Below are positions 1,441-30,572 of a stretch of DNA of 31,155 bases, in pieces. The translations under genes were made by a program, and so were the position numbers. The stretch's first letter is position 1; each line of letters begins with the position of its first letter. The DNA comes from a virus (taxonomy: Duplodnaviria; Heunggongvirae; Uroviricota; Caudoviricetes): the IMG/VR virus record IMGVR_UViG_2548876865_000016, positions 1-31,155 of that record; one strand, 5' to 3'. The notes under the pieces are model-generated. The model was not told where the DNA came from, searched no databases, and worked only from the letters and a program-made list of their open reading frames with translations.

Positions 1441-1483
1441 GCTGTTGAACAAACGAAAGAAAGGCCGCACGGTGGCGACCTTT
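1441..1483 (-). terminator. Putative intrinsic terminator at the end of the tail operon
   Basis: On the minus strand a GC-rich hairpin (AAAGGUCGC-loop-GCGGCCUUU) is followed by a U-rich run (CUUUCGUUUGUU), ~65 nt after the stop of the 1549..3273 gene. Confidence 0.4.
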
Positions 1484-1548: not shown

Positions 1549-3273
1549 TCAGGCTATCAGGGGACCGTATTTGCTTTTCAATGTACCGGTTTTAGTGGCC
1601 GTTGCGCTGAACTGCGCAGCCTGCCCGCTGGCCCCTGTGTTGGGGTGAGTATGTGACGCGGCAGTCTCTGCCAGTTCCCTCACCACGTCCAGGGTGTCGG
1701 TGAGTAGTGTCAGGACGTTAATCTCTTCGCTTCCCAGTTTTACCACCGGGGCAATCAGCTGTTGCGCCTGGGCCACACTTCGGCGGATACCGCTGATTTT
1801 CTCAGTCAGTGCGCCGCTGACGTTTGACGTGACATTCCCTTTCACGTCGTCTGTAACATCGCCCGCGACGTCCCGTTTTGCGTTCCGGCCAACACTGACG
1901 GAATTGTCCTTGCTGCAGGTTACTGTCAGGTTGCCGGATGTGCCGATACTGTAATCACCCTCGCTGATATGGACCACCGCCCCGGCCAGAAGAGTGGCCG
2001 TGCCAAGCACGGTTGTTTTATCCGTTGCCTGGACCGTAGTTTCACGGACAACCACTTTGCGGATCTCTTCGTCGGTGGTGACTTCGCGCATCATGGAGTT
2101 TTCGCGGATTGTCTGGTCCGTCTGGCGTTCCCAGTCTCCGGCAACCGTCACGCGCTGCGATACACCATCGCGCTGTTGCTGCAACTGCTCGCCGGGTTTA
2201 ACCGCTGGCAGGTTATGACCCTCCGCCATAATCTGGCGCACGAAGGGCTTATCCTGCCGCCCCTCAGTGAACCCGATTTCAACCAGCGTGCCAGGGGGCG
2301 GAAACTGGAACATTCCCGACTCGCTGCCCGCCATTGGTACAGGTAGCGGAACGGCAGAATAAACCGGCGTATTTGCGGCTGGCTTGCCGTATTCGTCAAG
2401 CAGCTGGAGATCCACGGCATAGCGCGGGCGGAATGGATCGGCAATATTACCCCCTGAAACATCCTCGCTTGGCGCTTCCACCCTGGCGAATTTTGGAAGA
2501 TGCAGGCCGCTTGCCAGCTCCGGGAATGCGTTTTCAATCTGCCGCTGAATGGGTGATTTTTGCAATGGCTGGCCGTTGGCTTTGTTGCGTGGCTGCCAGG
2601 TGATTGTCATGTCGTCGTTATTTAGCCGGACCTGGTTTAACCGCTGGCCGTTCACCTCAGCACCCGGGCGCAGGCTCTGAATCATCGGCACAACCATTGA
2701 ATTGCCGCCTGCCGATGCCTGGCTAAATTCGTGCGGGATCTCTACTGGTTTACCCGCAAAAAGACTGTGCTCAGCAGCACCGACGAAGACATCCCCGTCC
2801 GGCAGCTGATACCAAAGATAATCCGTCACTGAAAATGCTCGGCCCAGACTGGCAAAAAGCTGGTAGCCCGTGCCGCTGTGCGTAAAGTGGGGGATCGGTT
2901 TATCTGCATAAGCAGCGCCGACCGGCGTTGTGACGGTCAGCCCGCTTTGCTCACTTATCCAGTCAGTAATCTGGCGCAACGTTGGATGCTGGAAAGAACA
3001 CGGCCACAATTTATCAAAGATGCCGACCAGCTCACGCACGAACAACCGGCATGTTCCATTATCAGCAGGCTGTGACCGTTCGACGTACCCGGTAAACCAG
3101 CGCAGGACCAGACCATCATAACCAACATCGATACGCACCATTTTGCCGGTGTAATCTGTCTCTGTCCCCGCCGTAATAAACCCCCGACCGCACGCGTTCA
3201 GCTCCAGCACGATATTGCAGTCAATCAGATGGACCGGATCAGAGGAAAGGTACAGGCGTTTAATTGGTTTCAT
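1549..3273 (-). CDS. Baseplate hub / central spike fusion protein (gpD-like N-terminus, gpV/gp5-like OB-fold, beta-helical repeat C-terminus; VgrG-like)
   Basis: 574 aa; central GMFQFPPPGTLVEIGFTEGRQDKPFV resembles the gpV/gp5 OB-fold motif; C-terminal VxGxxxxx-type repeats (DVAGDVTDDVKGNVTSNVSG); last gene of the tail array. Confidence 0.5.
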   Translation of the reverse strand: MKPIKRLYLSSDPVHLIDCNIVLELNACGRGFITAGTETDYTGKMVRIDVGYDGLVLRWFTGYVERSQPADNGTCRLFVRELVGIFDKLWPCSFQHPTLRQITDWISEQSGLTVTTPVGAAYADKPIPHFTHSGTGYQLFASLGRAFSVTDYLWYQLPDGDVFVGAAEHSLFAGKPVEIPHEFSQASAGGNSMVVPMIQSLRPGAEVNGQRLNQVRLNNDDMTITWQPRNKANGQPLQKSPIQRQIENAFPELASGLHLPKFARVEAPSEDVSGGNIADPFRPRYAVDLQLLDEYGKPAANTPVYSAVPLPVPMAGSESGMFQFPPPGTLVEIGFTEGRQDKPFVRQIMAEGHNLPAVKPGEQLQQQRDGVSQRVTVAGDWERQTDQTIRENSMMREVTTDEEIRKVVVRETTVQATDKTTVLGTATLLAGAVVHISEGDYSIGTSGNLTVTCSKDNSVSVGRNAKRDVAGDVTDDVKGNVTSNVSGALTEKISGIRRSVAQAQQLIAPVVKLGSEEINVLTLLTDTLDVVRELAETAASHTHPNTGASGQAAQFSATATKTGTLKSKYGPLIA

Positions 3274-3280
3274 CGTTTAA

Positions 3281-3823
3281 TTACCCCAGCGCATCGTTGA
3301 CCGGCTTTAAGACCTTTTCTTCAAACCAGCTCATTTTGTCGGCTGGTTCATCAGCACCGGCGGCCGGACCCGCGCCCTTTGCCCCTGTTTGCCTGGTGGT
3401 GGCCGTCGCGTTGCCTTTTCTGGCCTGTCGTTTTTCCGGGACGCTGCCTTTTTCACGCAGGGTGAAACTTACCTGCCAGGCAAGGTGATCCTCCTGCGGT
3501 ACGGCATCAATCTGACCGGTGAACGTGGCTTCACGAAGGTTGATGGCCGTTGCCGTCGCATTGGCAACACGGTACTTTTTCAGTGCTCCGCTGGCTTCGG
3601 TTGCGGATGCCAGCTGGAAAAGCCGCTGTAAAACGGCTTCATCGTCGAATGTCACCAGACCCGACACGCGCAGCTCTTTGGCCTTGATACCCTGTTCAGC
3701 ATTGGCCGTGCTCGATGTCTGGCCCGACTGGTCCTTCTCCTGAAACTGCATGGAAGGTGAAACCAGCATGTTCTGCATGGCGATCCCTTCACCATCAAGC
3801 GCGAGTAATGCGGTCTGGCTCAT
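3281..3823 (-). CDS. Hypothetical protein in the distal tail operon (180 aa)
   Basis: ATG start with strong SD (GGGAGGA) upstream; tightly packed between flanking tail genes; backbone-like GC; no family recognised. Confidence 0.5.
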   Translation of the reverse strand: MSQTALLALDGEGIAMQNMLVSPSMQFQEKDQSGQTSSTANAEQGIKAKELRVSGLVTFDDEAVLQRLFQLASATEASGALKKYRVANATATAINLREATFTGQIDAVPQEDHLAWQVSFTLREKGSVPEKRQARKGNATATTRQTGAKGAGPAAGADEPADKMSWFEEKVLKPVNDALG

Positions 3824-4517
3824 GTAGCATCCTCCCTAAGTCAGATAACGAATCCCCGATAAACATCATCGCGGCGGTATGCACTGCCGTTGTTTGCGGG
3901 ATGCCTTTCAGCAATTCAGCGGCAGCAACGGCATAACTCCCGCTGTAACTGAATGAAAAAATATTCGCACTGGCGGCTTTCAGGTCGTCCAGTCCCTGGC
4001 TGAGTGAGGACAGCAAACCGGCCCGTTCCTGAATAAATCCCGTCACCTGGTTTTTTAGATCTGTTGTGGTGGTACTGACTGCGGCGGCCAGCTGCGCGGC
4101 GGCAACACGCTGGGCATTCAGCGCCAGCCGGTTGGTTGAGACTGATAACGGCGCACTGGCTGGCAATACATCGGCTTTAACCGGCAACTGCATTTTTACC
4201 GTGCTGAGTTCTGCGGCGGCTGCCGCCATGCGGCTTACCTGCGTAAAAACGGGGGCAGGAAATACGGTGGACAGTTTATTCAGCCCCTGCATAAATGCGT
4301 CGTGGGTATTCTCCGCTACCATCATGACGATGACATCGCCGCTACCGCCACCGGATAACAGCTTTTTAGCAAGATATCCCATCGCATTGGCCGGACTAAG
4401 ATAAGCGCCTGAATCCGTGGACTGACCCAGCCCATACACCCACGGATGGGCCGGAATGATTGAACAGGATAATGCCGACATATCATCGGCAATCCTTATA
4501 ATTGAATCACGCCACAT
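3795..4517 (-). CDS. Hypothetical Ala/Ser-rich protein in the distal tail operon (~240 aa; start ambiguous: TTG 4565, ATG 4517 or ATG 4481)
   Basis: Long ORF co-oriented with tail genes, overlapping the end of the tail fibre assembly gene; no family recognised. Confidence 0.4.
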   Translation of the reverse strand: MWRDSIIRIADDMSALSCSIIPAHPWVYGLGQSTDSGAYLSPANAMGYLAKKLLSGGGSGDVIVMMVAENTHDAFMQGLNKLSTVFPAPVFTQVSRMAAAAAELSTVKMQLPVKADVLPASAPLSVSTNRLALNAQRVAAAQLAAAVSTTTTDLKNQVTGFIQERAGLLSSLSQGLDDLKAASANIFSFSYSGSYAVAAAELLKGIPQTTAVHTAAMMFIGDSLSDLGRMLHEPDRITRA

Positions 4518-4944
4518 CGGCAGGTTGCTCCGGCCAGACAATATCTGTCGCTGAGTCGGTATCAATGCGCATCAGCGATACCCTGTATTCACGCCAGGCA
4601 GTAAAAAGCGCTTTTTCTGCGTCCGTCGCTTTACCCAGATCAACGGCATCCTGCAAAGGTGCCAGGATATTGCTGGCCGCAGCCATCAGGGCAGATTTTT
4701 GCGTCTCAGCCCTTACGATTGATTCTTCTTCAGAAAGCGGCAGGGGGTCAGAAAGGACCGGCTGACCATATTCATTTGGGATGATGATACGCCCTGAACT
4801 CTTATCAATCAGATACTGATACCAGCGCTCAGAAATCAACAAGGCGTCAGCAGGCCAGCCCAGTTCCGATTTTTCATAATCTGGCTTCAACGAAAGGAAG
4901 AAAAATCCATTCATGGAAGCACTGTAATAATATTGCTCATCCAT
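4507..4944 (-). CDS. Tail fibre assembly protein (Tfa / gpG-like chaperone)
   Basis: 145 aa; C-terminal ...LQDAVDLGKATDAEKALFTAWREYRVSLMRIDTDSATDIVWPEQP is the conserved Tfa motif; immediately downstream of the tail fibre gene. Confidence 0.75.
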   Translation of the reverse strand: MDEQYYYSASMNGFFFLSLKPDYEKSELGWPADALLISERWYQYLIDKSSGRIIIPNEYGQPVLSDPLPLSEEESIVRAETQKSALMAAASNILAPLQDAVDLGKATDAEKALFTAWREYRVSLMRIDTDSATDIVWPEQPADVA

Positions 4945-4947
4945 TTT

Positions 4948-6870
4948 TTAATATCCCGTTGCCAGCCAGAACAAAGGAAAGCCCTGGTTTGCGTTAAGCC
5001 TTGCCGTCGTATTGGAATATTGCGACACCGAACATTCGAGCGTCCCGGCCACATTCGAGGTAAAAGGCGTGACCTGAATATTCCGGCACGCATTCGGGAA
5101 TGCGATCGGGAACGTAATATTTTGATAACCGGACGTCTGGTTCGTGTAACCCCACTGACGGATCCTTCCTGTTGTTCCGTCGCGCTCCCAGCCGTTTTGC
5201 CCCAGGCTGGCCGTATTTTTCAGGTTATAGCGTGCGTCGCTCTCGGCTTTTGTATACGACCCAATCGACCCCGCCGAAATGGTGATGTTTGCTGTACCGT
5301 TAAATGCCACGCCGTTGATGGTGCGGGCGGTTTGCAATTGTGACGCTGAAACCGCATTACCATTTGACGCAAGAGCGCCAATCTCTGCCGGGGTGGGCTT
5401 GTTCGCCACATCATAGGCTTTTGTCCATGCAGACCAGGTGCCACCATAAAGCGTTCGGGCATAACTGCGGGAATTGTTGTACACGCGATAAATTTGCGTG
5501 ATTCCGGCATGCTTAAGGACTTCAAGAGAACCCGCGATCGCCTCCGGGTAATTCGTCCCGGTTTGCGCCTGCGCGTTCGCGGGCTGGTAATAAAGCCCTG
5601 GCGTGGTGTAGTTGTTCAGATTTGCTGCATTACCAATCCCTTCGGCCAACCGAAAAATATCAGACGGGAAAAGATCGATATTACTCGATAGCGCTCGACC
5701 GTTAACCGTTCGTGTTGAGGGCACGCGACTATTAGCATTATCGTTAGCCGCCTTAACTGCTTTCGGCGTCGCGGCGACGGCTTCCGACTCGCTGTCGGTG
5801 GCGCTGCTCAGTTGAATAATCCCTTTCTGCGCTGTCGTAGCGTCCTGCGCGGTGTATTTACCTTTCGCCAGGTCATAGGTTGCCTTAACCGCTTTCGGCG
5901 TTGCCGCTACTTCTTCAGAATCGCTATCCGTGGCGCTGCTTAATTGCGTGAATCCCTTTGCGGTTGTGGTGGCGTCCGGGTGGTTGCATGATTGTTCGTG
6001 TTTTTTCAGCGCATCACTGGCCTGTTGCTCGTTCAGCGTACCTTTTGGACGAAGATCGGTAATGACGCCGTTTGCGTCGATACTCGCAAGGGCAAACACG
6101 AAATGTTGCTCACCATTCTGCACGTAATCTTTAAGGTCGGCGGCAACCGTGATTTTGCTTTGTACCGCCCAAATGCTCGTAAGCGTTCCCATCCACGCCA
6201 CATCCAGCCAGACCTTAACCGGCTTTGTTGACACGGTAATATTCTGGTTTGCGGCCAACACTGAACGCAGACCGGCAAGGTATCCAGTACCTTTAGTGAC
6301 AAAATACTGGGTGCCTGTTTTCGCGACCAGATAACCCGCATCAAAGAACGACGCCGCACCATACAGATCGATATTTTCGCGGCGCTGGCGTTCATCCATT
6401 GCCGCCAGACGGGCAGTAAAATCAATCTGCCATGTCTCTGCCGGGGTGGTAATTTCCGTTGCTTCCCTGGCTCCGCTGTATTCCATCAGCATGGAACGGA
6501 CCAGAACGTTTCCCTGCTGGCCGTTCGCATTTTTGATTTTACGCTGGGTCGGGGCATGAATAATCATCGCCAGTGTACCGGTGGCTTTATTTGCCAGACC
6601 GATCCAGTTGAAATCAAAATCACCCACATCTGCCCCCATCGTGACGGAATAAACGACAGAGTTTTCATTCACAACACCGGATTTACTCACCACCTGACGA
6701 TAAACAATTTTATCCGCTGCGGGTGCTGTCTCGGTATTATCAATCGGCTTATCAGCATCCAGCCCCGGAATATACGCGAAAATAAATTCATCCAGCGCGA
6801 CGGGCTGATTATTAATAGCCTGCCTGGCTTTCCACTCTGTAAATGCTTTTGTAATAACGGCCTGTGACAT
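4948..6870 (-). CDS. Tail fibre protein (gpH-like) with internal tandem fibre repeat and divergent C-terminal receptor-binding region
   Basis: 640 aa; position between gpI-like and Tfa genes; two tandem ~44-aa repeats (…AKGFTQLSSATDSDSEEVAATPKAVKA… / …QKGIIQLSSATDSESEAVAATPKAVKA…). Confidence 0.8.
   Translation of the reverse strand: MSQAVITKAFTEWKARQAINNQPVALDEFIFAYIPGLDADKPIDNTETAPAADKIVYRQVVSKSGVVNENSVVYSVTMGADVGDFDFNWIGLANKATGTLAMIIHAPTQRKIKNANGQQGNVLVRSMLMEYSGAREATEITTPAETWQIDFTARLAAMDERQRRENIDLYGAASFFDAGYLVAKTGTQYFVTKGTGYLAGLRSVLAANQNITVSTKPVKVWLDVAWMGTLTSIWAVQSKITVAADLKDYVQNGEQHFVFALASIDANGVITDLRPKGTLNEQQASDALKKHEQSCNHPDATTTAKGFTQLSSATDSDSEEVAATPKAVKATYDLAKGKYTAQDATTAQKGIIQLSSATDSESEAVAATPKAVKAANDNANSRVPSTRTVNGRALSSNIDLFPSDIFRLAEGIGNAANLNNYTTPGLYYQPANAQAQTGTNYPEAIAGSLEVLKHAGITQIYRVYNNSRSYARTLYGGTWSAWTKAYDVANKPTPAEIGALASNGNAVSASQLQTARTINGVAFNGTANITISAGSIGSYTKAESDARYNLKNTASLGQNGWERDGTTGRIRQWGYTNQTSGYQNITFPIAFPNACRNIQVTPFTSNVAGTLECSVSQYSNTTARLNANQGFPLFWLATGY
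5750..6013 (-). repeat. Tandem duplication (2 x ~132 bp) inside the tail fibre gene, encoding the phage tail-fibre repeat
   Basis: Near-identical nucleotide blocks starting ~5750 and ~5882 (gccttaac(t/c)gctttcggcg...ggcgctgct...); in-frame 44-codon period. Coordinates approximate. Confidence 0.6.
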
Positions 6871-6881
6871 AGGTCTTTCCT

Positions 6882-7481
6882 CTACTTCAAACTTGCGCTG
6901 TACGTTGCTTCGGGCTGGTTATTCACATCGCCCAGGGTGGCAGGCCAGCAAATATATTCACCCTGATACCAGCCAATATTGATATTCAGTGGCAGGGCGG
7001 TAATCACTTCAAACTGGTAGCGGCGGCATGTGCGCCCGTATTTGCGGATTATTTCCAGCAGGAGATCGCCATTTTCCGCAATCTGGTTATTTGTCACACG
7101 AACGACAATAACGTCCCAGTCGAGTCCGTCCTGTCGTTCCAGTAATTCAACGTAACCAATCCCCAGTCGCTCAAAAATGGCAATAAAGCCCGCCACCTCT
7201 CCGGCCTGCTGCGCATTGATAAATGCGTAACTCACCCGTTTGCGGAAAATGTCGAGCGGCTCCCCCTTAAACCGAACGATGTCGCGTTCCCAGGCAATCA
7301 GGTTTAACAGCGGTTCGGGGCAGACCAGTGGGTCAAACTGCTTTAACGGCCAGGTAATCCACCCGTACACCTGCGACCAGAATTTCACGCAGCCACGCAA
7401 CAGCCTGGCGGGGTCGCCTTTGTTCAGCCACGACGGCAATTTCAGACCGGCAAGCAAGGTTGAAAACTCAGTCATTTTCAA
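6882..7481 (-). CDS. Baseplate/tail protein gpI-like
   Basis: 199 aa; sits between the J-like gene and the tail fibre gene as in P2 (J-I-H); overlapping start with upstream gene. Confidence 0.6.
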   Translation of the reverse strand: MKMTEFSTLLAGLKLPSWLNKGDPARLLRGCVKFWSQVYGWITWPLKQFDPLVCPEPLLNLIAWERDIVRFKGEPLDIFRKRVSYAFINAQQAGEVAGFIAIFERLGIGYVELLERQDGLDWDVIVVRVTNNQIAENGDLLLEIIRKYGRTCRRYQFEVITALPLNINIGWYQGEYICWPATLGDVNNQPEATYSASLK

Positions 7482-8652
7482 CCTCCACCGTTAACCCTGA
7501 CAGGCGCGGGACCGACAGTTCGCTGACAATATCCGTCAGTGAAAAATGCAGTGAATCGACAACCGGAAAAGCCTTGTGGATCTCGCGGCCCAGATTCGAA
7601 AAGGAATAGCGCGAATAGGGCTGCGTCTTTTTAACGTCGTAATTGGCGTTCTCGCGAAACGCGCAACGAATCAGGTCAGTAATACCGGTTTTTAACGCGT
7701 TCAGGCCTTCCGCTTCCATGTTTTCCACGCTTTTGACGTAGACCGTTACCGCCAGGGTGTGGCTGGTTTCCGGCATGGCATAACACTGCAGGTCATCACC
7801 GTGTCCGTGGTGGCCCTGGGTATTCACATAGTCGTTAACCGCATCAATAAAGGGCTGTGATATTTCGCCACTGTCCAGCAACAGGTAAGCATTTGCCGTA
7901 CCCGGCCCACGCGGGGCATCGTGCAAAAAGTAAATGCGATCAACGCTCAGGCCCAGCACGCTGGCAATCATGCTGCGGTAAATAGCATCAGAGTGGTAAT
8001 TACCTACCAGATTAAACTGGTTGCGGGTCCGGTCGCGCAGCTCGTCGTCGCTTTCCTCGTTAGCCCCTGGCGTAATCAGCCATTCGTCCTCGTTTACCGC
8101 GCTGGCAATCCCGGCCACCGCAACAGGTAAGATCCGGTAATAGCCGGGCGCAAGGTTATAGCCGCTACCGGTGCCGGTCGCCGTGACGGGAACCAGCCCG
8201 CTTTCAACCCCGGCAGGCAGCGTCACGTCTTCATTCACGGCCAGCACGTAAACCACGCCGTTAATACGCTCGGTTTGCACCAGTGTTCCGGCTGGCACGA
8301 CGACCACATCCGCCGCGTTCAGCTTGTAGAACCGCAGCACGCCAGCGGCAGCGCTGGCCGGTTTAGGCACGATATGGACCGCCCAGGCCAGCAGGCGCAG
8401 CATGGGACCGCTGGCCGTCGCAACAAACATATTGCGCAGAACCACATCGATCAGCGCCGCCCGCAGCCATAACACCGGCGTGGTGACAATCTTCGAAATC
8501 AGCCGCCAGAAAGGTGACATTCTTGACGTATTTGTGACGAACCCTTCCGCCTGCACGGTGGCTTTAAATGCCGCCGTAATTTCGGCCTCTGTCGCGGGCA
8601 TCCCGCTGTCATTCAGCACTTTTTCAAAATCAATGTCGGGTTTCTCAGTCAT
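7468..8652 (-). CDS. Baseplate protein J-like (start taken at ATG 8652, 2 nt after the upstream stop)
   Basis: ~394 aa; position W-J-I-H; ORF-track start at 8703 overlaps the upstream gene by 58 nt, whereas ATG at 8650-8652 has a GAGG SD and abuts the upstream stop. Confidence 0.65.
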   Translation of the reverse strand: MTEKPDIDFEKVLNDSGMPATEAEITAAFKATVQAEGFVTNTSRMSPFWRLISKIVTTPVLWLRAALIDVVLRNMFVATASGPMLRLLAWAVHIVPKPASAAAGVLRFYKLNAADVVVVPAGTLVQTERINGVVYVLAVNEDVTLPAGVESGLVPVTATGTGSGYNLAPGYYRILPVAVAGIASAVNEDEWLITPGANEESDDELRDRTRNQFNLVGNYHSDAIYRSMIASVLGLSVDRIYFLHDAPRGPGTANAYLLLDSGEISQPFIDAVNDYVNTQGHHGHGDDLQCYAMPETSHTLAVTVYVKSVENMEAEGLNALKTGITDLIRCAFRENANYDVKKTQPYSRYSFSNLGREIHKAFPVVDSLHFSLTDIVSELSVPRLSGLTVEVEND

Positions 8653-8980
8653 AGTTAACCTCTGTACCGACAGGGCCGAAATCGTAGGTTTCCGCCGTGA
8701 CATACAACCGCGAAAGGGTTTCTTCGGTGATCAATATGGTGCCGGGGACCAGACGTTCGTCGCTTTCCACCAGTAAGGACAGTTGCGTCAGCACGTCACC
8801 GCGCATTGTCGGGCTGCGCTCACCGATCAGGCGGGTGGTGATACCGCTTTCCAGAATGCTGTGAATAATGTCCTGGGTGATGCTGTCGCGGTTATCGCAA
8901 CGGCGCGGCTCGTTGCCGCTGTCCAGCGTGAAATCGCCGTCAGTGATCAAAAGGTCGATGTATAACGGTTCGGTACTCAT
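8645..8980 (-). CDS. Baseplate wedge protein gpW/gp25-like
   Basis: 111 aa; start overlaps the tape-measure stop; ...GERSPTMRGDVL... resembles the gp25/GPW family core; immediately upstream of the J-like gene. Confidence 0.45.
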   Translation of the reverse strand: MSTEPLYIDLLITDGDFTLDSGNEPRRCDNRDSITQDIIHSILESGITTRLIGERSPTMRGDVLTQLSLLVESDERLVPGTILITEETLSRLYVTAETYDFGPVGTEVNYD

Positions 8981-11073
8981 CCTGCGTTAAGCTCCTGCCA
9001 TTCAGCCAGCTGGGCCGGGGTGATTCCATTGGGGGCGTTGATGTAGGTGTCGCCCCACGATTTACGGTTATCCACAGCGGTTTTGCTGTCGGTTTTAACC
9101 TGACTCATCAGGCCGCCGCGTGGGATGTCTGCATTAATTCGGTTCCCCGTCAGCACGGACGGGCTGTTCAGCTTCGACGAACCTGCAGCACTGTCAGGAA
9201 CGACCGCGTTTGCCGGTGGCGAAACGGTTTTCAGGTCGATGTTGACGCCGGGGATCTTGTTTAACTTCTCAACAATCCAGTTATAGGTAGATGCAAAGGT
9301 ATTTTTGAGGACGTCGAAAAGTTTGCTGAATACCCCGCCGATGGTCTGTGCGAACCCTTCAAAGGTGGCGAGCGGGGAAAGACCGGCAAAGAAATCAACC
9401 ACCACGGCCCAGCCGTCAGTAATGGATTGCCAGACCTGCGCAAACACCTGGCCCACCTGTTCAGCGACTGACATCACCCAGGCAAAAGCCGCCGTATCCA
9501 TGATCGCTGCCGCCAGTTCTTCCCAGTGGGTGACGACATACCAGACCCCCACAGCCAGAAGCGCCAGTCCGGCAATAATCAGGGTGATCGGACTCATCAG
9601 GAATTGCATTGCAGCCCCGGCAAACATGGTCGCCGCACCGTAAACCCGCATGGCAATGGCCCCGGCCTTTAACGCGATATTCCATGCAGCAAGCGCGATG
9701 CGACAGACGCCCGTCCACAGCGCCAGCAATTTTGACTGGATCCATAATGCGGCCAGACCGATGCGCGTCGTCAGCAGGGACGGACGCAACAGGTTGAGCG
9801 TCCATAACAGGAGTTTCCATGCACCGCCCAGCACTTTTGCGATTGCGGCCAGCCCCATCATGGTGAAGCCAAAGCCCCCCATCACGATATTGACCGCCGC
9901 CCCGGCCAGCCCGAAGGACAGCACGCCCAGGGTGATGTAACCCAGCCAGCGGGCAATATTCGGGAACATATCCAGCCAGCGGGCAAATTTTGTCCCCACG
10001 TCGGCAATACGGTTCATCAGCGGTGACAGAATAGGGATCAGCGTGTTACCAATCGCCACGCGAATGGCAAAGAATGTCGCTTTGATACGCTCCCACGGCT
10101 CGGCCATTCGTGCGGCCATTTCCTGGGCGCGTTTCATCCCGTCGTTTCGGCCCAGCTCGGTGATACTGCGATTTAATTTATCCTGCTGGCCGTACAGCTT
10201 TTTGATAACGTCAGCACCGCCACCGAACGCGGCGTCCAGCGCCTGTTGTGCCTTGACGTTCCCTTCAATGCTCTGCCCGTATTTACTCTGGAGTTTTTGC
10301 AGAATGTCGCCCATCGGCAGCATTTTGCCGGTGGCATCGACAAAGCTCATACCCAGCTTTTCAGCGGCAGCCGGGGCGCTGCGTAAAAACTGCTCGTAGA
10401 TCCCGCTGGCCTCAGTACCCAGCGTGCGCGAAAGCGTACCCAGGACGGCGAACTGTTCATCCAGGCTGACGCCAAAGTCAGCACCGGCACTTTTCGTCCC
10501 CTCGATAAGCTCCTGCATGGTCTGCATTTTCACGCCGAAGTTTTGCACCATGTACGCGGTTTTCCCTGCCAGCTCTTCGGCAAAACGCACATGGCCCAGA
10601 CTGGACAACTCCGCGTTGAAACGTGACGCCATCGCGCCGATGTATTCGCCTGCCTCTTCGCCGCTGGCCTTGACGCCTGCCGCAAGGGTATTGGCCGCGA
10701 TGGTGACGCGGGGCAGGTCCAGATCGGACAGGCCCGCCATTGCACCTTTCATCGCGTAGCTTGACCGGACCACATCAACGGCCCCTTTGCCGTAGCGCAT
10801 ACTGAATCGCATAGCTTCGCCGGACAGACGCTTCAGCGCGTCCTCTGCCACGCCTTTGGAACCCACTTCTGCAAGTGCGGCGTTCATCTCATATGCCGGA
10901 CCCACCACGCCCGCGATGGACTGCGCCACGCCCCAGACAGCCGCCGCACCGATCCCGATTTTTGTAAAAGATGCCTGCGATTTTTCAGCAAAGCCGGACA
11001 GCGAAGACTGGGCCGTTTTTAATGGCCGCGTCAGCTTATCGATCAGGCTCAGGGTAAAATCCAGGTGGCTCAT
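8977..11073 (-). CDS. Tail tape measure protein
   Basis: 698 aa, Ala/Gly-rich with internal hydrophobic segments; directly downstream of the chaperone gene and its frameshift extension. Confidence 0.85.
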   Translation of the reverse strand: MSHLDFTLSLIDKLTRPLKTAQSSLSGFAEKSQASFTKIGIGAAAVWGVAQSIAGVVGPAYEMNAALAEVGSKGVAEDALKRLSGEAMRFSMRYGKGAVDVVRSSYAMKGAMAGLSDLDLPRVTIAANTLAAGVKASGEEAGEYIGAMASRFNAELSSLGHVRFAEELAGKTAYMVQNFGVKMQTMQELIEGTKSAGADFGVSLDEQFAVLGTLSRTLGTEASGIYEQFLRSAPAAAEKLGMSFVDATGKMLPMGDILQKLQSKYGQSIEGNVKAQQALDAAFGGGADVIKKLYGQQDKLNRSITELGRNDGMKRAQEMAARMAEPWERIKATFFAIRVAIGNTLIPILSPLMNRIADVGTKFARWLDMFPNIARWLGYITLGVLSFGLAGAAVNIVMGGFGFTMMGLAAIAKVLGGAWKLLLWTLNLLRPSLLTTRIGLAALWIQSKLLALWTGVCRIALAAWNIALKAGAIAMRVYGAATMFAGAAMQFLMSPITLIIAGLALLAVGVWYVVTHWEELAAAIMDTAAFAWVMSVAEQVGQVFAQVWQSITDGWAVVVDFFAGLSPLATFEGFAQTIGGVFSKLFDVLKNTFASTYNWIVEKLNKIPGVNIDLKTVSPPANAVVPDSAAGSSKLNSPSVLTGNRINADIPRGGLMSQVKTDSKTAVDNRKSWGDTYINAPNGITPAQLAEWQELNAG

Positions 11074-11074
11074 A

Positions 11075-11272
11075 TCAGTTTCCGTTAAATGCGATGGCTA
11101 TCCCTTCCGCCGTCTTGCTGGCGCGGGTCTGGGCAAAATACTCGTCCAGCCACAGGGCGCGGGCGATGCTTTCTTCGTCGTCGGCTTCGTGCGGGAGGTA
11201 GTAGCGGCGCAGGGCAAGGTATTGCTCAAGCGCATTCTTGCGAATGGCCGCCACCCGCGCCGTCAGTTTTTT
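11075..11272 (-). CDS. -1 frame extension of the tail assembly chaperone (E+E' / G-GT-like fusion segment); includes slippery heptamer A_AAA_AAC at 11266-11272
   Basis: Minus-strand reading GAA GTA AAA AAC TGA; after a -1 slip the frame stays open for 62 codons (LTARVAAIRKNALEQYL...AFNGN) and ends at TGA 11075-11077, 1 nt before the tape-measure ATG. Confidence 0.5.
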   Translation of the reverse strand, partial: KKLTARVAAIRKNALEQYLALRRYYLPHEADDEESIARALWLDEYFAQTRASKTAEGIAIAFNGN

Positions 11273-11532
11273 ACTTCGATCTCAAGTTTGGGGGAGTAAA
11301 TCTCGTTAACCTTCTCGACGATCTGCATTTCGCAACCCGGATAATCTTCCATCAGCTTGTTGAGCGACTCTTTACACTCGGCATCAACAATGCGGCCCAG
11401 ATACGTCACCATAGGGGCAACCTTATTGGTCATGGTCATTTCGTTAAGCAGGTTGTTAAACGCGGTTTTATTCGGCTCAAAGCTCAGATTTACGCCCGCC
11501 ACGGTCATGGCGATTTTTTTCGGTTTACTCAT
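11263..11532 (-). CDS. Tail assembly chaperone (gpE / lambda gpG-like), zero-frame product
   Basis: 89 aa immediately upstream of the tape measure gene; canonical slippery site at its last codons. Confidence 0.65.
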   Translation of the reverse strand: MSKPKKIAMTVAGVNLSFEPNKTAFNNLLNEMTMTNKVAPMVTYLGRIVDAECKESLNKLMEDYPGCEMQIVEKVNEIYSPKLEIEVKN

Positions 11533-29564: not shown

Positions 29565-30572
29565 ATGACAATTAAGAAACTCGATGATGGTCGTTATGAA
29601 GTGGATATCAGACCTGCAGGGCGCAACGGAAAGCGCATCCGCAGGAAATTTGACAAGAAAAGTGAGGCTGTAGCTTTTGAGAAACACACTCAATACAACC
29701 ATCACGATAAAGAATGGCTAGCTAAACCGACAGATAAGCGGCATCTGTCTGAATTAACAAAAGTCTGGTGGGATCTGAAAGGCAAGCATGAAGAACACGG
29801 AAAATCCAATTTGGGTAAGATTGAAATCTTTACCCGGATCACTGATGACCCTTGCGCGTTCCAGATAACCAAAGCGCTTATTAGCCAGTACAGCATGACT
29901 CGCAGAGGGCAAGGCATAAAACCGGCCAGTATTAACCGCGACCTTACCTGCCTGAGTGGTATGTTTACTGCGCTAATTGATGCGGAACTGTTTTTTGGCG
30001 AACACCCTTTCAGAGGAATGAAAAAGCTCAAGGAGCAGAAACCAGAAACAGGCTATCTGACGCAGGAAGAAATAACATTGTTACTTGCCAATCTTGACGG
30101 GGACAACAAGAAAATCGCGATCCTCTGTTTAAGTACCGGCGCTCGATGGGGTGAAGCCGCGAAACTGAAAGCTGAGAACGTAATACAGAATCGGGTGACG
30201 TTCGTTAAAACAAAGACGAACAAACCGCGCACAGTCCCTATCTCTGAGGAAGTTGCTGTAATGATTGCGGGTAAAGGTTATCTGTTCCCTGATGCCTCAT
30301 ATCCGAAGTTCAGGCGAACAATGAAAGATGTAAAACCAGATCTACCGGACGGGCAAGCAACTCACGCATTGCGTCACAGTTTTGCTACCCACTTTATGAT
30401 TAACGGCGGGAGTATCATCACCCTGCAGAGAATACTGGGACATTCACGCATAGAGCAGACAATGGTCTATGCGCACTTTGCCCCGGAGTATCTTCAGGAT
30501 GCTGTTTCACTCAATCCGCTACGTGGTGGCGTTGACTCCATGAGTGTCCACACTGTGTCCACAGTAGGGTAG
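29565..30572 (+). CDS. int: Tyrosine integrase (P2 Int-like)
   Basis: 335 aa (P2 Int 337 aa); catalytic-box residues ...HALRHSFATHF... and ...LGHSRIEQTMVYAH...; transcribed toward the att core. Confidence 0.95.
   Translation: MTIKKLDDGRYEVDIRPAGRNGKRIRRKFDKKSEAVAFEKHTQYNHHDKEWLAKPTDKRHLSELTKVWWDLKGKHEEHGKSNLGKIEIFTRITDDPCAFQITKALISQYSMTRRGQGIKPASINRDLTCLSGMFTALIDAELFFGEHPFRGMKKLKEQKPETGYLTQEEITLLLANLDGDNKKIAILCLSTGARWGEAAKLKAENVIQNRVTFVKTKTNKPRTVPISEEVAVMIAGKGYLFPDASYPKFRRTMKDVKPDLPDGQATHALRHSFATHFMINGGSIITLQRILGHSRIEQTMVYAHFAPEYLQDAVSLNPLRGGVDSMSVHTVSTVG

Follow-up and report, generated by a model that had tools for sequence, protein, structure and literature searches.

Three genes at the distal end of the tail operon of a P2-like prophage: probable central baseplate proteins of the HP1 subgroup

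The window analysed here is a stretch of 31,155 nucleotides (nt) of viral DNA (IMG/VR record IMGVR_UViG_2548876865_000016, positions 1 to 31,155), which contains a P2-like prophage. On its minus strand, the tail genes run on past the gene for the tail fibre assembly protein (Tfa), and the last three of them encode proteins of 240, 180 and 574 amino acids (aa). What do these three genes contribute to the phage tail, and where does their order come from? An earlier note, made from the sequence alone, presented the arrangement as a departure from phage P2, in which the spike gene V precedes W-J-I-H-G and the hub gene D follows the tape measure gene. It described the first two proteins as unrecognised and the third as a hub fused to a spike, and considered that the unrecognised ones might be missing structural proteins, such as an analogue of P2 gpU, or something new attached to the tail operon. 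The comparisons reported below give us good confidence that the trio is the distal end of the tail operon of a prophage from the HP1 subgroup of the Peduoviridae, and that it encodes the central part of the baseplate.

Gene order and lineage of the trio

The three open reading frames (ORFs) were confirmed on the minus strand (Table 1), and Pfam matches gave the order from the tape measure to Tfa that had been described; the gene order quoted for P2 was also correct. The ORFs are real genes and not chance ORFs, since each protein has hundreds of homologues, the genes overlap by 11 and 29 nt, as is typical of translational coupling (the 240-aa ORF overlaps the 3′ end of the Tfa gene), and the trio is conserved. 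It was found in matching order in the phages HP1 (Haemophilus), K139 (Vibrio), phiO18P (Aeromonas), F108 (Pasteurella), ESSI-2 (Cronobacter) and vB_YenM_324 (Yersinia), and also in SI7.

Searches with phmmer against HP1 related the three proteins, in order, to orf33 (3.5e-20), orf34 (1.9e-35) and orf35 (2.2e-141). The sequence tape measure, DUF2590, J, I, fibre, (Tfa), orf33, orf34, orf35 and operon end is the same in HP1 (orf27 to orf35, with orf27-orf32 as the counterparts of the upstream genes), in K139 (trio orf37-39) and in SI7. Over the trio region, DNA identity reaches ~95% to the Salmonella phages SI7, SW5 and SW3 (genus Irrigatiovirus, Peduoviridae). The Peduoviridae have been split into a P2 subgroup and an HP1 subgroup, with SW5 in the latter (PMC10612066). 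Because the HP1 subgroup shares this order throughout, the departure from P2 is a known lineage character and not a peculiarity of the locus, and the layout that the earlier note implied to be unusual is canonical, being present in HP1 itself. No essential difference from the HP1 subgroup was observed; the beta-helical segment of the spike is longer in the window than in HP1 or K139, and the cassette formed by the fibre C-terminus and Tfa is not alike between the window and SI7.

When the P2 tail proteins were searched with phmmer against the six-frame translated window, only gpH (fibre) and gpG (Tfa) gave matches. That no others are recognisable pairwise is consistent with the identities of 11-17% to P2 tail proteins obtained with HHpred in published work (PMC10612066). 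Five family profiles were also aligned with hhalign to the single P2 tail proteins X, U, D, V, W, I, G, E, S, R and FII, and every probability was 1.1 or below, single-sequence templates making this a weak test.

Downstream, a terminator-like hairpin lies 66 nt past the stop codon of the 574-aa ORF, where the tail operon probably ends; in K139, a terminator is annotated at the equivalent position, after orf39.

The probable hub-spike fusion and the predicted tube initiator

The 574-aa protein was matched along its whole length (residues 1-574) by phrog_2258 'baseplate protein' at 2e-275, and full-length homologues occur in HP1, K139, phiO18P, ESSI-2 and vB_YenM_324. In phi3, UFJF_PfPro (Pseudomonas), PV94 (Vibrio), C5a and ACA2 (Pseudoalteromonas), its two halves are encoded by separate hub (~230 aa) and spike genes that overlap by 7-28 nt, whereas in the fused forms they are joined by a short linker, residues 229-243. 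The hub domain also stands alone in many bacterial genomes, including those of Pseudomonas and Pseudoalteromonas. This pattern of fusion and fission bears out the hub-spike reading of the earlier note, and HP1 is described in the literature as fusing its gpD and gpV homologues (PMC10612066). The separate genes of the five relatives would also fit an artefactual fusion of hub and spike, produced by a sequencing or frameshift error. Against this, the fused ORF is uninterrupted in independent genomes (SI7, ~40 IMG/VR contigs, ESSI-2, vB_YenM_324, HP1, K139 and phiO18P), no stop or frameshift between codons 228 and 244 was seen in any fused-form relative, and the linker region is conserved in the fused forms. 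The related proposal that the trio is cargo carried in the tail operon is opposed by its co-inheritance with the baseplate genes and by its end at the operon terminator. Artefact or cargo, we give this alternative next to no credence.

Judged from its sequence matches, the 574-aa protein is a probable hub fused to a spike of the gp5/VgrG type. A profile of the C-terminal module (10 family members) was compared with the PDB, searched by sequence in a 2026 copy here and throughout; the matches, which extend along the OB-fold and beta-helix, were T4 gp5 (E 2e-5), VgrG1 (E 1.9e-4) and further VgrG spikes. The family phrog_4011 spans residues 240-571. With the single sequence, the Pfam and NCBIfam matches (Gp5_C, Gp5_trimer_C and vgr_GE) were sub-threshold, and the PDB search gave marginal gp5 matches only. 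Near the C-terminus, the two histidines of an HxH motif (541 and 543) are nearly invariant across the family. They are comparable to H197/H199 of P2 gpV, whose C-terminus reads '...HTHKHPGD...', and an HxH near the C-terminus has been described as diagnostic of the iron-binding Apex domain of spikes (bioRxiv 10.1101/2023.02.25.529910). We predict that this motif forms the iron-cage apex of the spike. In PV94, the spike gene (our locus L049, 5235-5999) has no family HxH motif and its product has a Cys-rich end, 'GKGVCTGATVCPFTGGGH', which suggests a different apex chemistry in that phage.

The assignment of the N-terminal module as the hub is less secure than that of the spike. In its favour, phrog_196 'baseplate hub' matched 6 of the 12 family hub domains (best E 3e-8), and published HHpred comparisons linked the ACA1 homologue of this domain to P2 gpD at 10% identity (PMC10612066). 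Two points weigh against it: profile searches gave the domain no significant PDB or Pfam match, the best phage match in the PDB being the XkdQ-related hub of phiCD508 at a non-significant E of 0.36, and its 228 aa are far fewer than the 387 aa of P2 gpD.

A hub followed in one chain by a gp5-type OB-fold and beta-helix is the arrangement of VgrG in type VI secretion systems (T6SS), and it corresponds to gp27+gp5 of T4 and gpD+gpV of P2. From these systems, and from Afp8/Pvc8 of the extracellular contractile injection systems, the 574-aa protein differs in several respects. Its hub part of ~228 aa resembles neither gp27 nor gpD recognisably in Pfam or PDB profile searches, the ~40 residues between the beta-helix and the HxH motif have no assigned structure, a tail of 31 residues follows that motif, and it has neither a lysozyme domain nor a PAAR partner gene. 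As a matter of annotation, orf33-like and hub genes are present and unannotated in phi3 (L047, ~3080-3998 and 4534-5232) and in C5a (L050, 4492-5181), the omission in C5a having been pointed out before (PMC10612066).

The gene directly upstream encodes the 180-aa protein, a full-length member of PF25759 ('HP1_ORF34 baseplate complex protein'), which it matches at 182.7 bits (E 6.7e-54) where the cut-off is 27; a single-sequence search of the PDB gave no match for it. Clear homology to a tail protein was thus found for this member of the pair that had been called unrecognised; the description holds for the 240-aa protein, which gave no Pfam, PDB or fold match. An AlphaFold2 (AF2) model of the 180-aa protein, built with 46 homologues, has a pLDDT mostly above 90 over most of residues 11-125. 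It shows a beta-sandwich flanked by a single helix, and the invariant motif 'KDQSGQTSST..EQGIK' falls in a loop that was modelled poorly. In a fold search, the model has the tail-tube fold, and its best matches were ripcord and tube-initiator proteins, in support of the earlier suggestion that a gpU analogue was among the unrecognised proteins. A linker of low confidence and poor conservation (residues 126-163) leads to a conserved C-terminal helix, in which W166, F167, E168, V171 and L172 are invariant or nearly so.

In the structure of the P2 tail, six copies of gpU form the tube initiator on the gpD trimer, and the C-terminal helix of gpU contacts the wedge triplex (bioRxiv 10.64898/2026.09.14.750843). 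The 180-aa protein combines the tube fold with a C-terminal helix, its gene always lies directly before the hub gene, and a separate tube protein and a gpR-type terminator are encoded elsewhere in the window. For these reasons, we predict that it is the tube initiator, a functional analogue of gpU, in the class to which T4 gp48-gp54 also belong. The counterpart of gpU in the R2 pyocin is the ripcord PA0626. With both proteins, the 180-aa protein shares a tube-fold domain with a C-terminal extension or helix and a gene that adjoins the hub gene, and by analogy a ring of six copies would be expected between hub and tube. In contrast to gpU, it has no detectable sequence similarity to that protein and its gene does not directly follow the tape measure gene; in contrast to PA0626, it has no long helical ripcord domain (180 aa versus 285 aa).

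Several observations count against the tube-initiator assignment. The 180-aa protein had no match to PF06995 (Phage_P2_GpU) and so does not belong to the gpU family by sequence. Its family profile reached a probability of 0.2 with P2 gpU in hhalign, again with a single-sequence template and hence a weak test. The published HHpred link to gpU (15% identity) was flagged as 'uncertain' by its authors, and ACA1 gp47, a homologue of orf34, was not detected in virions (PMC10612066). We take this non-detection as an issue of sensitivity, yet it may count against the initiator role.

Other identities can be proposed for the 180-aa protein, such as another tube-fold part (a second tube, or an adaptor ring elsewhere) or, following names given in GenBank, a DNA-binding protein or an adenine glycosylase. 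Against this set speak the fold, which is unambiguously that of the tube, a gene that always stands beside that of the hub, and a window that already encodes a tube protein and a gpR-type terminator; sequence searches of Pfam, NCBIfam and the PDB lent no support to an enzymatic or DNA-binding family. We regard the whole set as very improbable in comparison with a tube initiator. The names 'adenine glycosylase', 'nucleoid DNA-binding protein' and 'DNA-binding protein' are attached to 180-aa homologues in NC_070917 (gp34), NC_027368 (gp45), NC_047775, NC_030940 (gp33) and NC_055862; our results lend support to none of them, and by the fold evidence the first two are wrong for the orf34 family.

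The 240-aa protein

The first protein of the trio starts at an ATG ('MW...') at position 4517, which is kept in 28 homologues; the mechanically called ORF begins at a TTG at 4565. Its description as Ala/Ser-rich was accurate (Ala 15.8%, Ser 10.8%, Leu 10.8%). It belongs to phrog_1677, of unassigned function (2e-78), with homologues in HP1 (orf33), K139 (orf37) and F108 (orf42), and this orf33 family comprises 216 clusters among 1.84 billion representatives. Scans of Pfam and NCBIfam gave no match, and neither single-sequence nor profile searches found a relative in the PDB.

The comparison of 42 related loci revealed that the identity of the 240-aa protein to its relatives follows that of the baseplate backbone, in tiers of ~93-95%, 73-78% and 47-50%. 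On the other hand, the C-terminal half of the fibre and Tfa are exchanged independently: even at loci that otherwise share 97-99% identity, they match at 30-55% or not at all. The 240-aa protein therefore belongs to the conserved central module and not to the host-range cassette, and the trio, being co-inherited with the baseplate backbone, is not an add-on; the idea of something new attached to the tail operon is not sustained. The exchanged cassette corresponds to window positions 4507-6030 on the minus strand (compared with loci L001-L042, whose other tail genes are 95-99% identical), and one IMG/VR contig, L002, carries the window's own version at 100% identity.

In published proteomics, ACA1 gp46, a distant homologue of orf33, was detected in purified virions, with a ratio of spectral count to mass of 0.09, against 0.05-0.08 for the gpW-, gpJ- and gpV-like proteins, and the authors reported no proteins that were unexpected in virions (PMC10612066, Table S2). 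In vB_YenM_324, the homologue is annotated as 'structural protein'; a literature search found no usable virion proteomics for vB_YenM_324 or PV94. The 240-aa protein is thus plausibly structural, as had been surmised, and is most likely a low-copy accessory of the virion, in the baseplate.

A more specific role can be approached by elimination. The LysM 'glue' protein, gpX in P2, is the sole conserved role of the minimal baseplate without a candidate in this lineage. Pfam and NCBIfam scans, the phmmer searches with P2 proteins and a check of small ORFs detected no Phage_tail_X or LysM protein in the window, nor was one found among the small ORFs that follow the spike gene in PV94, ACA2 and SI7. 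For ACA1 and HP1, the published lists include no homologue of gpX (PMC10612066). On this basis, we tentatively propose that the 240-aa protein is a low-copy, non-LysM connector between the wedges (J, I and DUF2590) and the complex of hub and initiator. More doubtful is the wider claim that the orf33 family represents a novel type of baseplate connector, which in the HP1 subgroup would replace the LysM glue of the gpX, PA0627 and T4 gp53 class. As for X in the pyocin cluster, the orf33 gene lies next to the initiator and hub genes. It differs from gpX and PA0627 in having no LysM fold or sequence signal, in its size (240 aa versus 67 aa) and in being missing from some HP1-type phages, the equivalence being one by elimination only. 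That the 240-aa protein is the LysM glue protein itself was considered and rejected, as it has neither a LysM fold nor a Phage_tail_X signature.

The connector role also has evidence against it. The AF2 model of the 240-aa protein is weak (pLDDT 63.6) and gave no meaningful fold match, with no LysM or other baseplate fold. The detection of ACA1 gp46 amounts to 2 spectra and 6% coverage, and this protein is only 16% identical to HP1 orf33 (PMC10612066). No member of the family was detected in the complete genomes of PV94 and C5a, and of the 75 phage records with an orf34 homologue, roughly 50 also have one of orf33; it is therefore not a universally required core part. PV94 was never shown to be infectious, and no indicator strain could be found for it when it was first described; C5a was isolated from seawater as a phage.

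These absences bear on a second possibility, that the 240-aa protein belongs to the fibre system, as a second fibre chaperone or a fibre-docking adaptor outside the central hub complex. Its gene directly follows the Tfa gene and overlaps it, PV94 and C5a are also without an annotated Tfa gene, and one database protein (P0270) joins a Tfa C-terminus to an orf33 N-terminus. However, where close relatives have swapped Tfa and the C-terminal half of the fibre, orf33 keeps the identity of the backbone, the sample of genomes without orf33 is small, and P0270 looks like a frameshifted gene call. A place in the fibre system is, in our judgement, unlikely. Slightly less probable still is a non-structural assembly factor, for example a chaperone of the hub or the tape measure, absent from the virion or present in traces. 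The protein evolves faster than every neighbouring backbone gene, its low-confidence model contains long conserved segments predicted to be disordered, the ACA1 detection is slight, and some lineages dispense with it, all of which would suit such a factor; the ACA1 ratio, similar to that of baseplate proteins, and the report of no unexpected virion proteins argue against it. Between wedge and hub, the connector is the role that we carry forward.

Among the long or fused members of the family, Pfam recognised only the Tfa fragment of P0270, probably a miscalled gene. Another such member is P0358, a metagenomic representative of 527 aa with no Pfam match, in which an orf33-like domain (307-514) stands behind ~300 residues with Ala/Gly/Thr-rich repeats; it may be a natural fusion that hints at a partner of orf33.

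The proposed baseplate and its surroundings

The features of the tail operon are collected in Table 1. On the minus strand, the tail genes run in the order gpR-like, gpS-like, sheath, tube with lysis genes, tail chaperone, tape measure, DUF2590, J, I, fibre, Tfa and the trio. Elsewhere, the P2-like prophage encodes an integrase (29565-30572), a replication protein like that of P2 gene A, and the portal, terminase, scaffold and capsid proteins.

Table 1. Tail operon features of the window on the minus strand, with the parts of the trio proteins
Feature	Positions	Strand	Basis
HP1 orf33-family protein, 240 aa	3795..4517	-	phrog_1677; homology to HP1 orf33
HP1 orf34-family protein, 180 aa, predicted tube initiator	3281..3823	-	PF25759
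Tube-fold domain of 180-aa protein, residues 1-125, including the invariant loop	3449..3823	-	AF2 model, invariant columns, fold matches
Conserved C-terminal helix of 180-aa protein, residues 164-180, 'MSWFEEKVLKPVNDALG'	3284..3334	-	helix 166-179 predicted
HP1 orf35-family fused hub-spike protein, 574 aa	1549..3273	-	phrog_2258
Hub-like N-terminal domain, residues 1-228	2590..3273	-	stand-alone gene in relatives; phrog_196
Spike domain, residues 244-574	1552..2544	-	profile match to T4 gp5 and VgrG1; phrog_4011
OB-fold region of spike, ~279-349	2227-2439	-	
Beta-helical repeats of spike, ~436-500	1774-1968	-	
HxH motif, His541-Thr-His543	1645..1653	-	sole HxH in the protein; predicted Fe-binding histidine cage of spike apex
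Terminator-like hairpin, probable end of tail operon	1460..1483	-	position after the hub-spike stop; K139 terminator
Upstream operon context, tape measure through Tfa	4507..11073	-	Pfam and PHROG matches
Tape measure	8977-11073	-	PF10145
DUF2590, sheath-initiator candidate	8645-8980	-	
J-like	7468-8703	-	Baseplate_J match
I-like	6882-7481	-	weak Tail_P2_I match
Fibre	4948-6870	-	
Tfa, fibre assembly protein	4507-4944	-	Caudo_TAP
gpR-like	15431-14955	-	
gpS-like	14958-14263	-	

The DUF2590 protein is taken as the equivalent of gpW from published HHpred comparisons only, in which its homologues from ACA1 and HP1 were assigned to gpW, the identity being 17% (PMC10612066). Our own tests were negative: a profile of 5 DUF2590 sequences retrieved neither gp25 nor gpW from the PDB, and the hhalign comparison with the single gpW sequence was null.

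Some neighbouring genes deserve mention. A 59-aa ORF matching DUF6890 (11075-11254, minus strand) separates the gene of the tail chaperone (11263-11532) from that of the tape measure. This location suggests that it is probably the chaperone's frameshift extension, equivalent to E/E+E' of P2. The gpS-like tail completion protein has 231 aa against 150 aa in P2 gpS, and its Phage_tail_S match covers residues 8-69 only, which leaves the C-terminal two thirds unassigned. At the other end of the window, positions 1-966 of the plus strand encode a 321-aa protein of the AbiH abortive-infection family (PF14253, E 9e-62), in a stretch of 37% GC (flank 967-1400). Since DNA similarity to SI7 ends near position 1400, this is a defence gene just beyond the prophage end or a moron at it.

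For the trio itself, we propose the following baseplate. A trimer of the 574-aa protein would close the end of the tube with its hub part (1-228) and continue into the OB-fold, the beta-helix and the HxH iron-cage apex, thereby combining the roles of gpD and gpV in one polypeptide, as does VgrG of the T6SS; the apex would be driven through the outer membrane as the sheath contracts. Six copies of the tube-fold domain of the 180-aa protein would form a ring between the three-fold hub and the six-fold tube, and its C-terminal helix, on the flexible linker, may reach out to the wedge, as described for P2 gpU and the pyocin ripcord. The 240-aa protein may link the wedges to the hub-initiator complex, in the place that is held in P2 by gpX.

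The gene order, the fusion of gpD and gpV homologues and a tentative gpU assignment have already been published, and near-identical phage genomes are in GenBank. What the fold evidence adds is a firmer basis for assigning the HP1_ORF34 family to the role of gpU, a link so far called 'uncertain'. Now that the P2 tail has been solved, the baseplate of the HP1 subgroup appears as a structural gap beside it: for the orf33 family, the orf34 family and the hub domain, the sequence searches of the PDB gave no relative, and for the spike they gave distant ones of the gp5/VgrG type only. Within a minimal baseplate that is otherwise fully assigned, the orf33 family represents a small and tractable problem. 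If the connector role proves true, HP1-type tails would represent a second way, structurally still unsolved, of joining wedges to hub in a minimal contractile tail.

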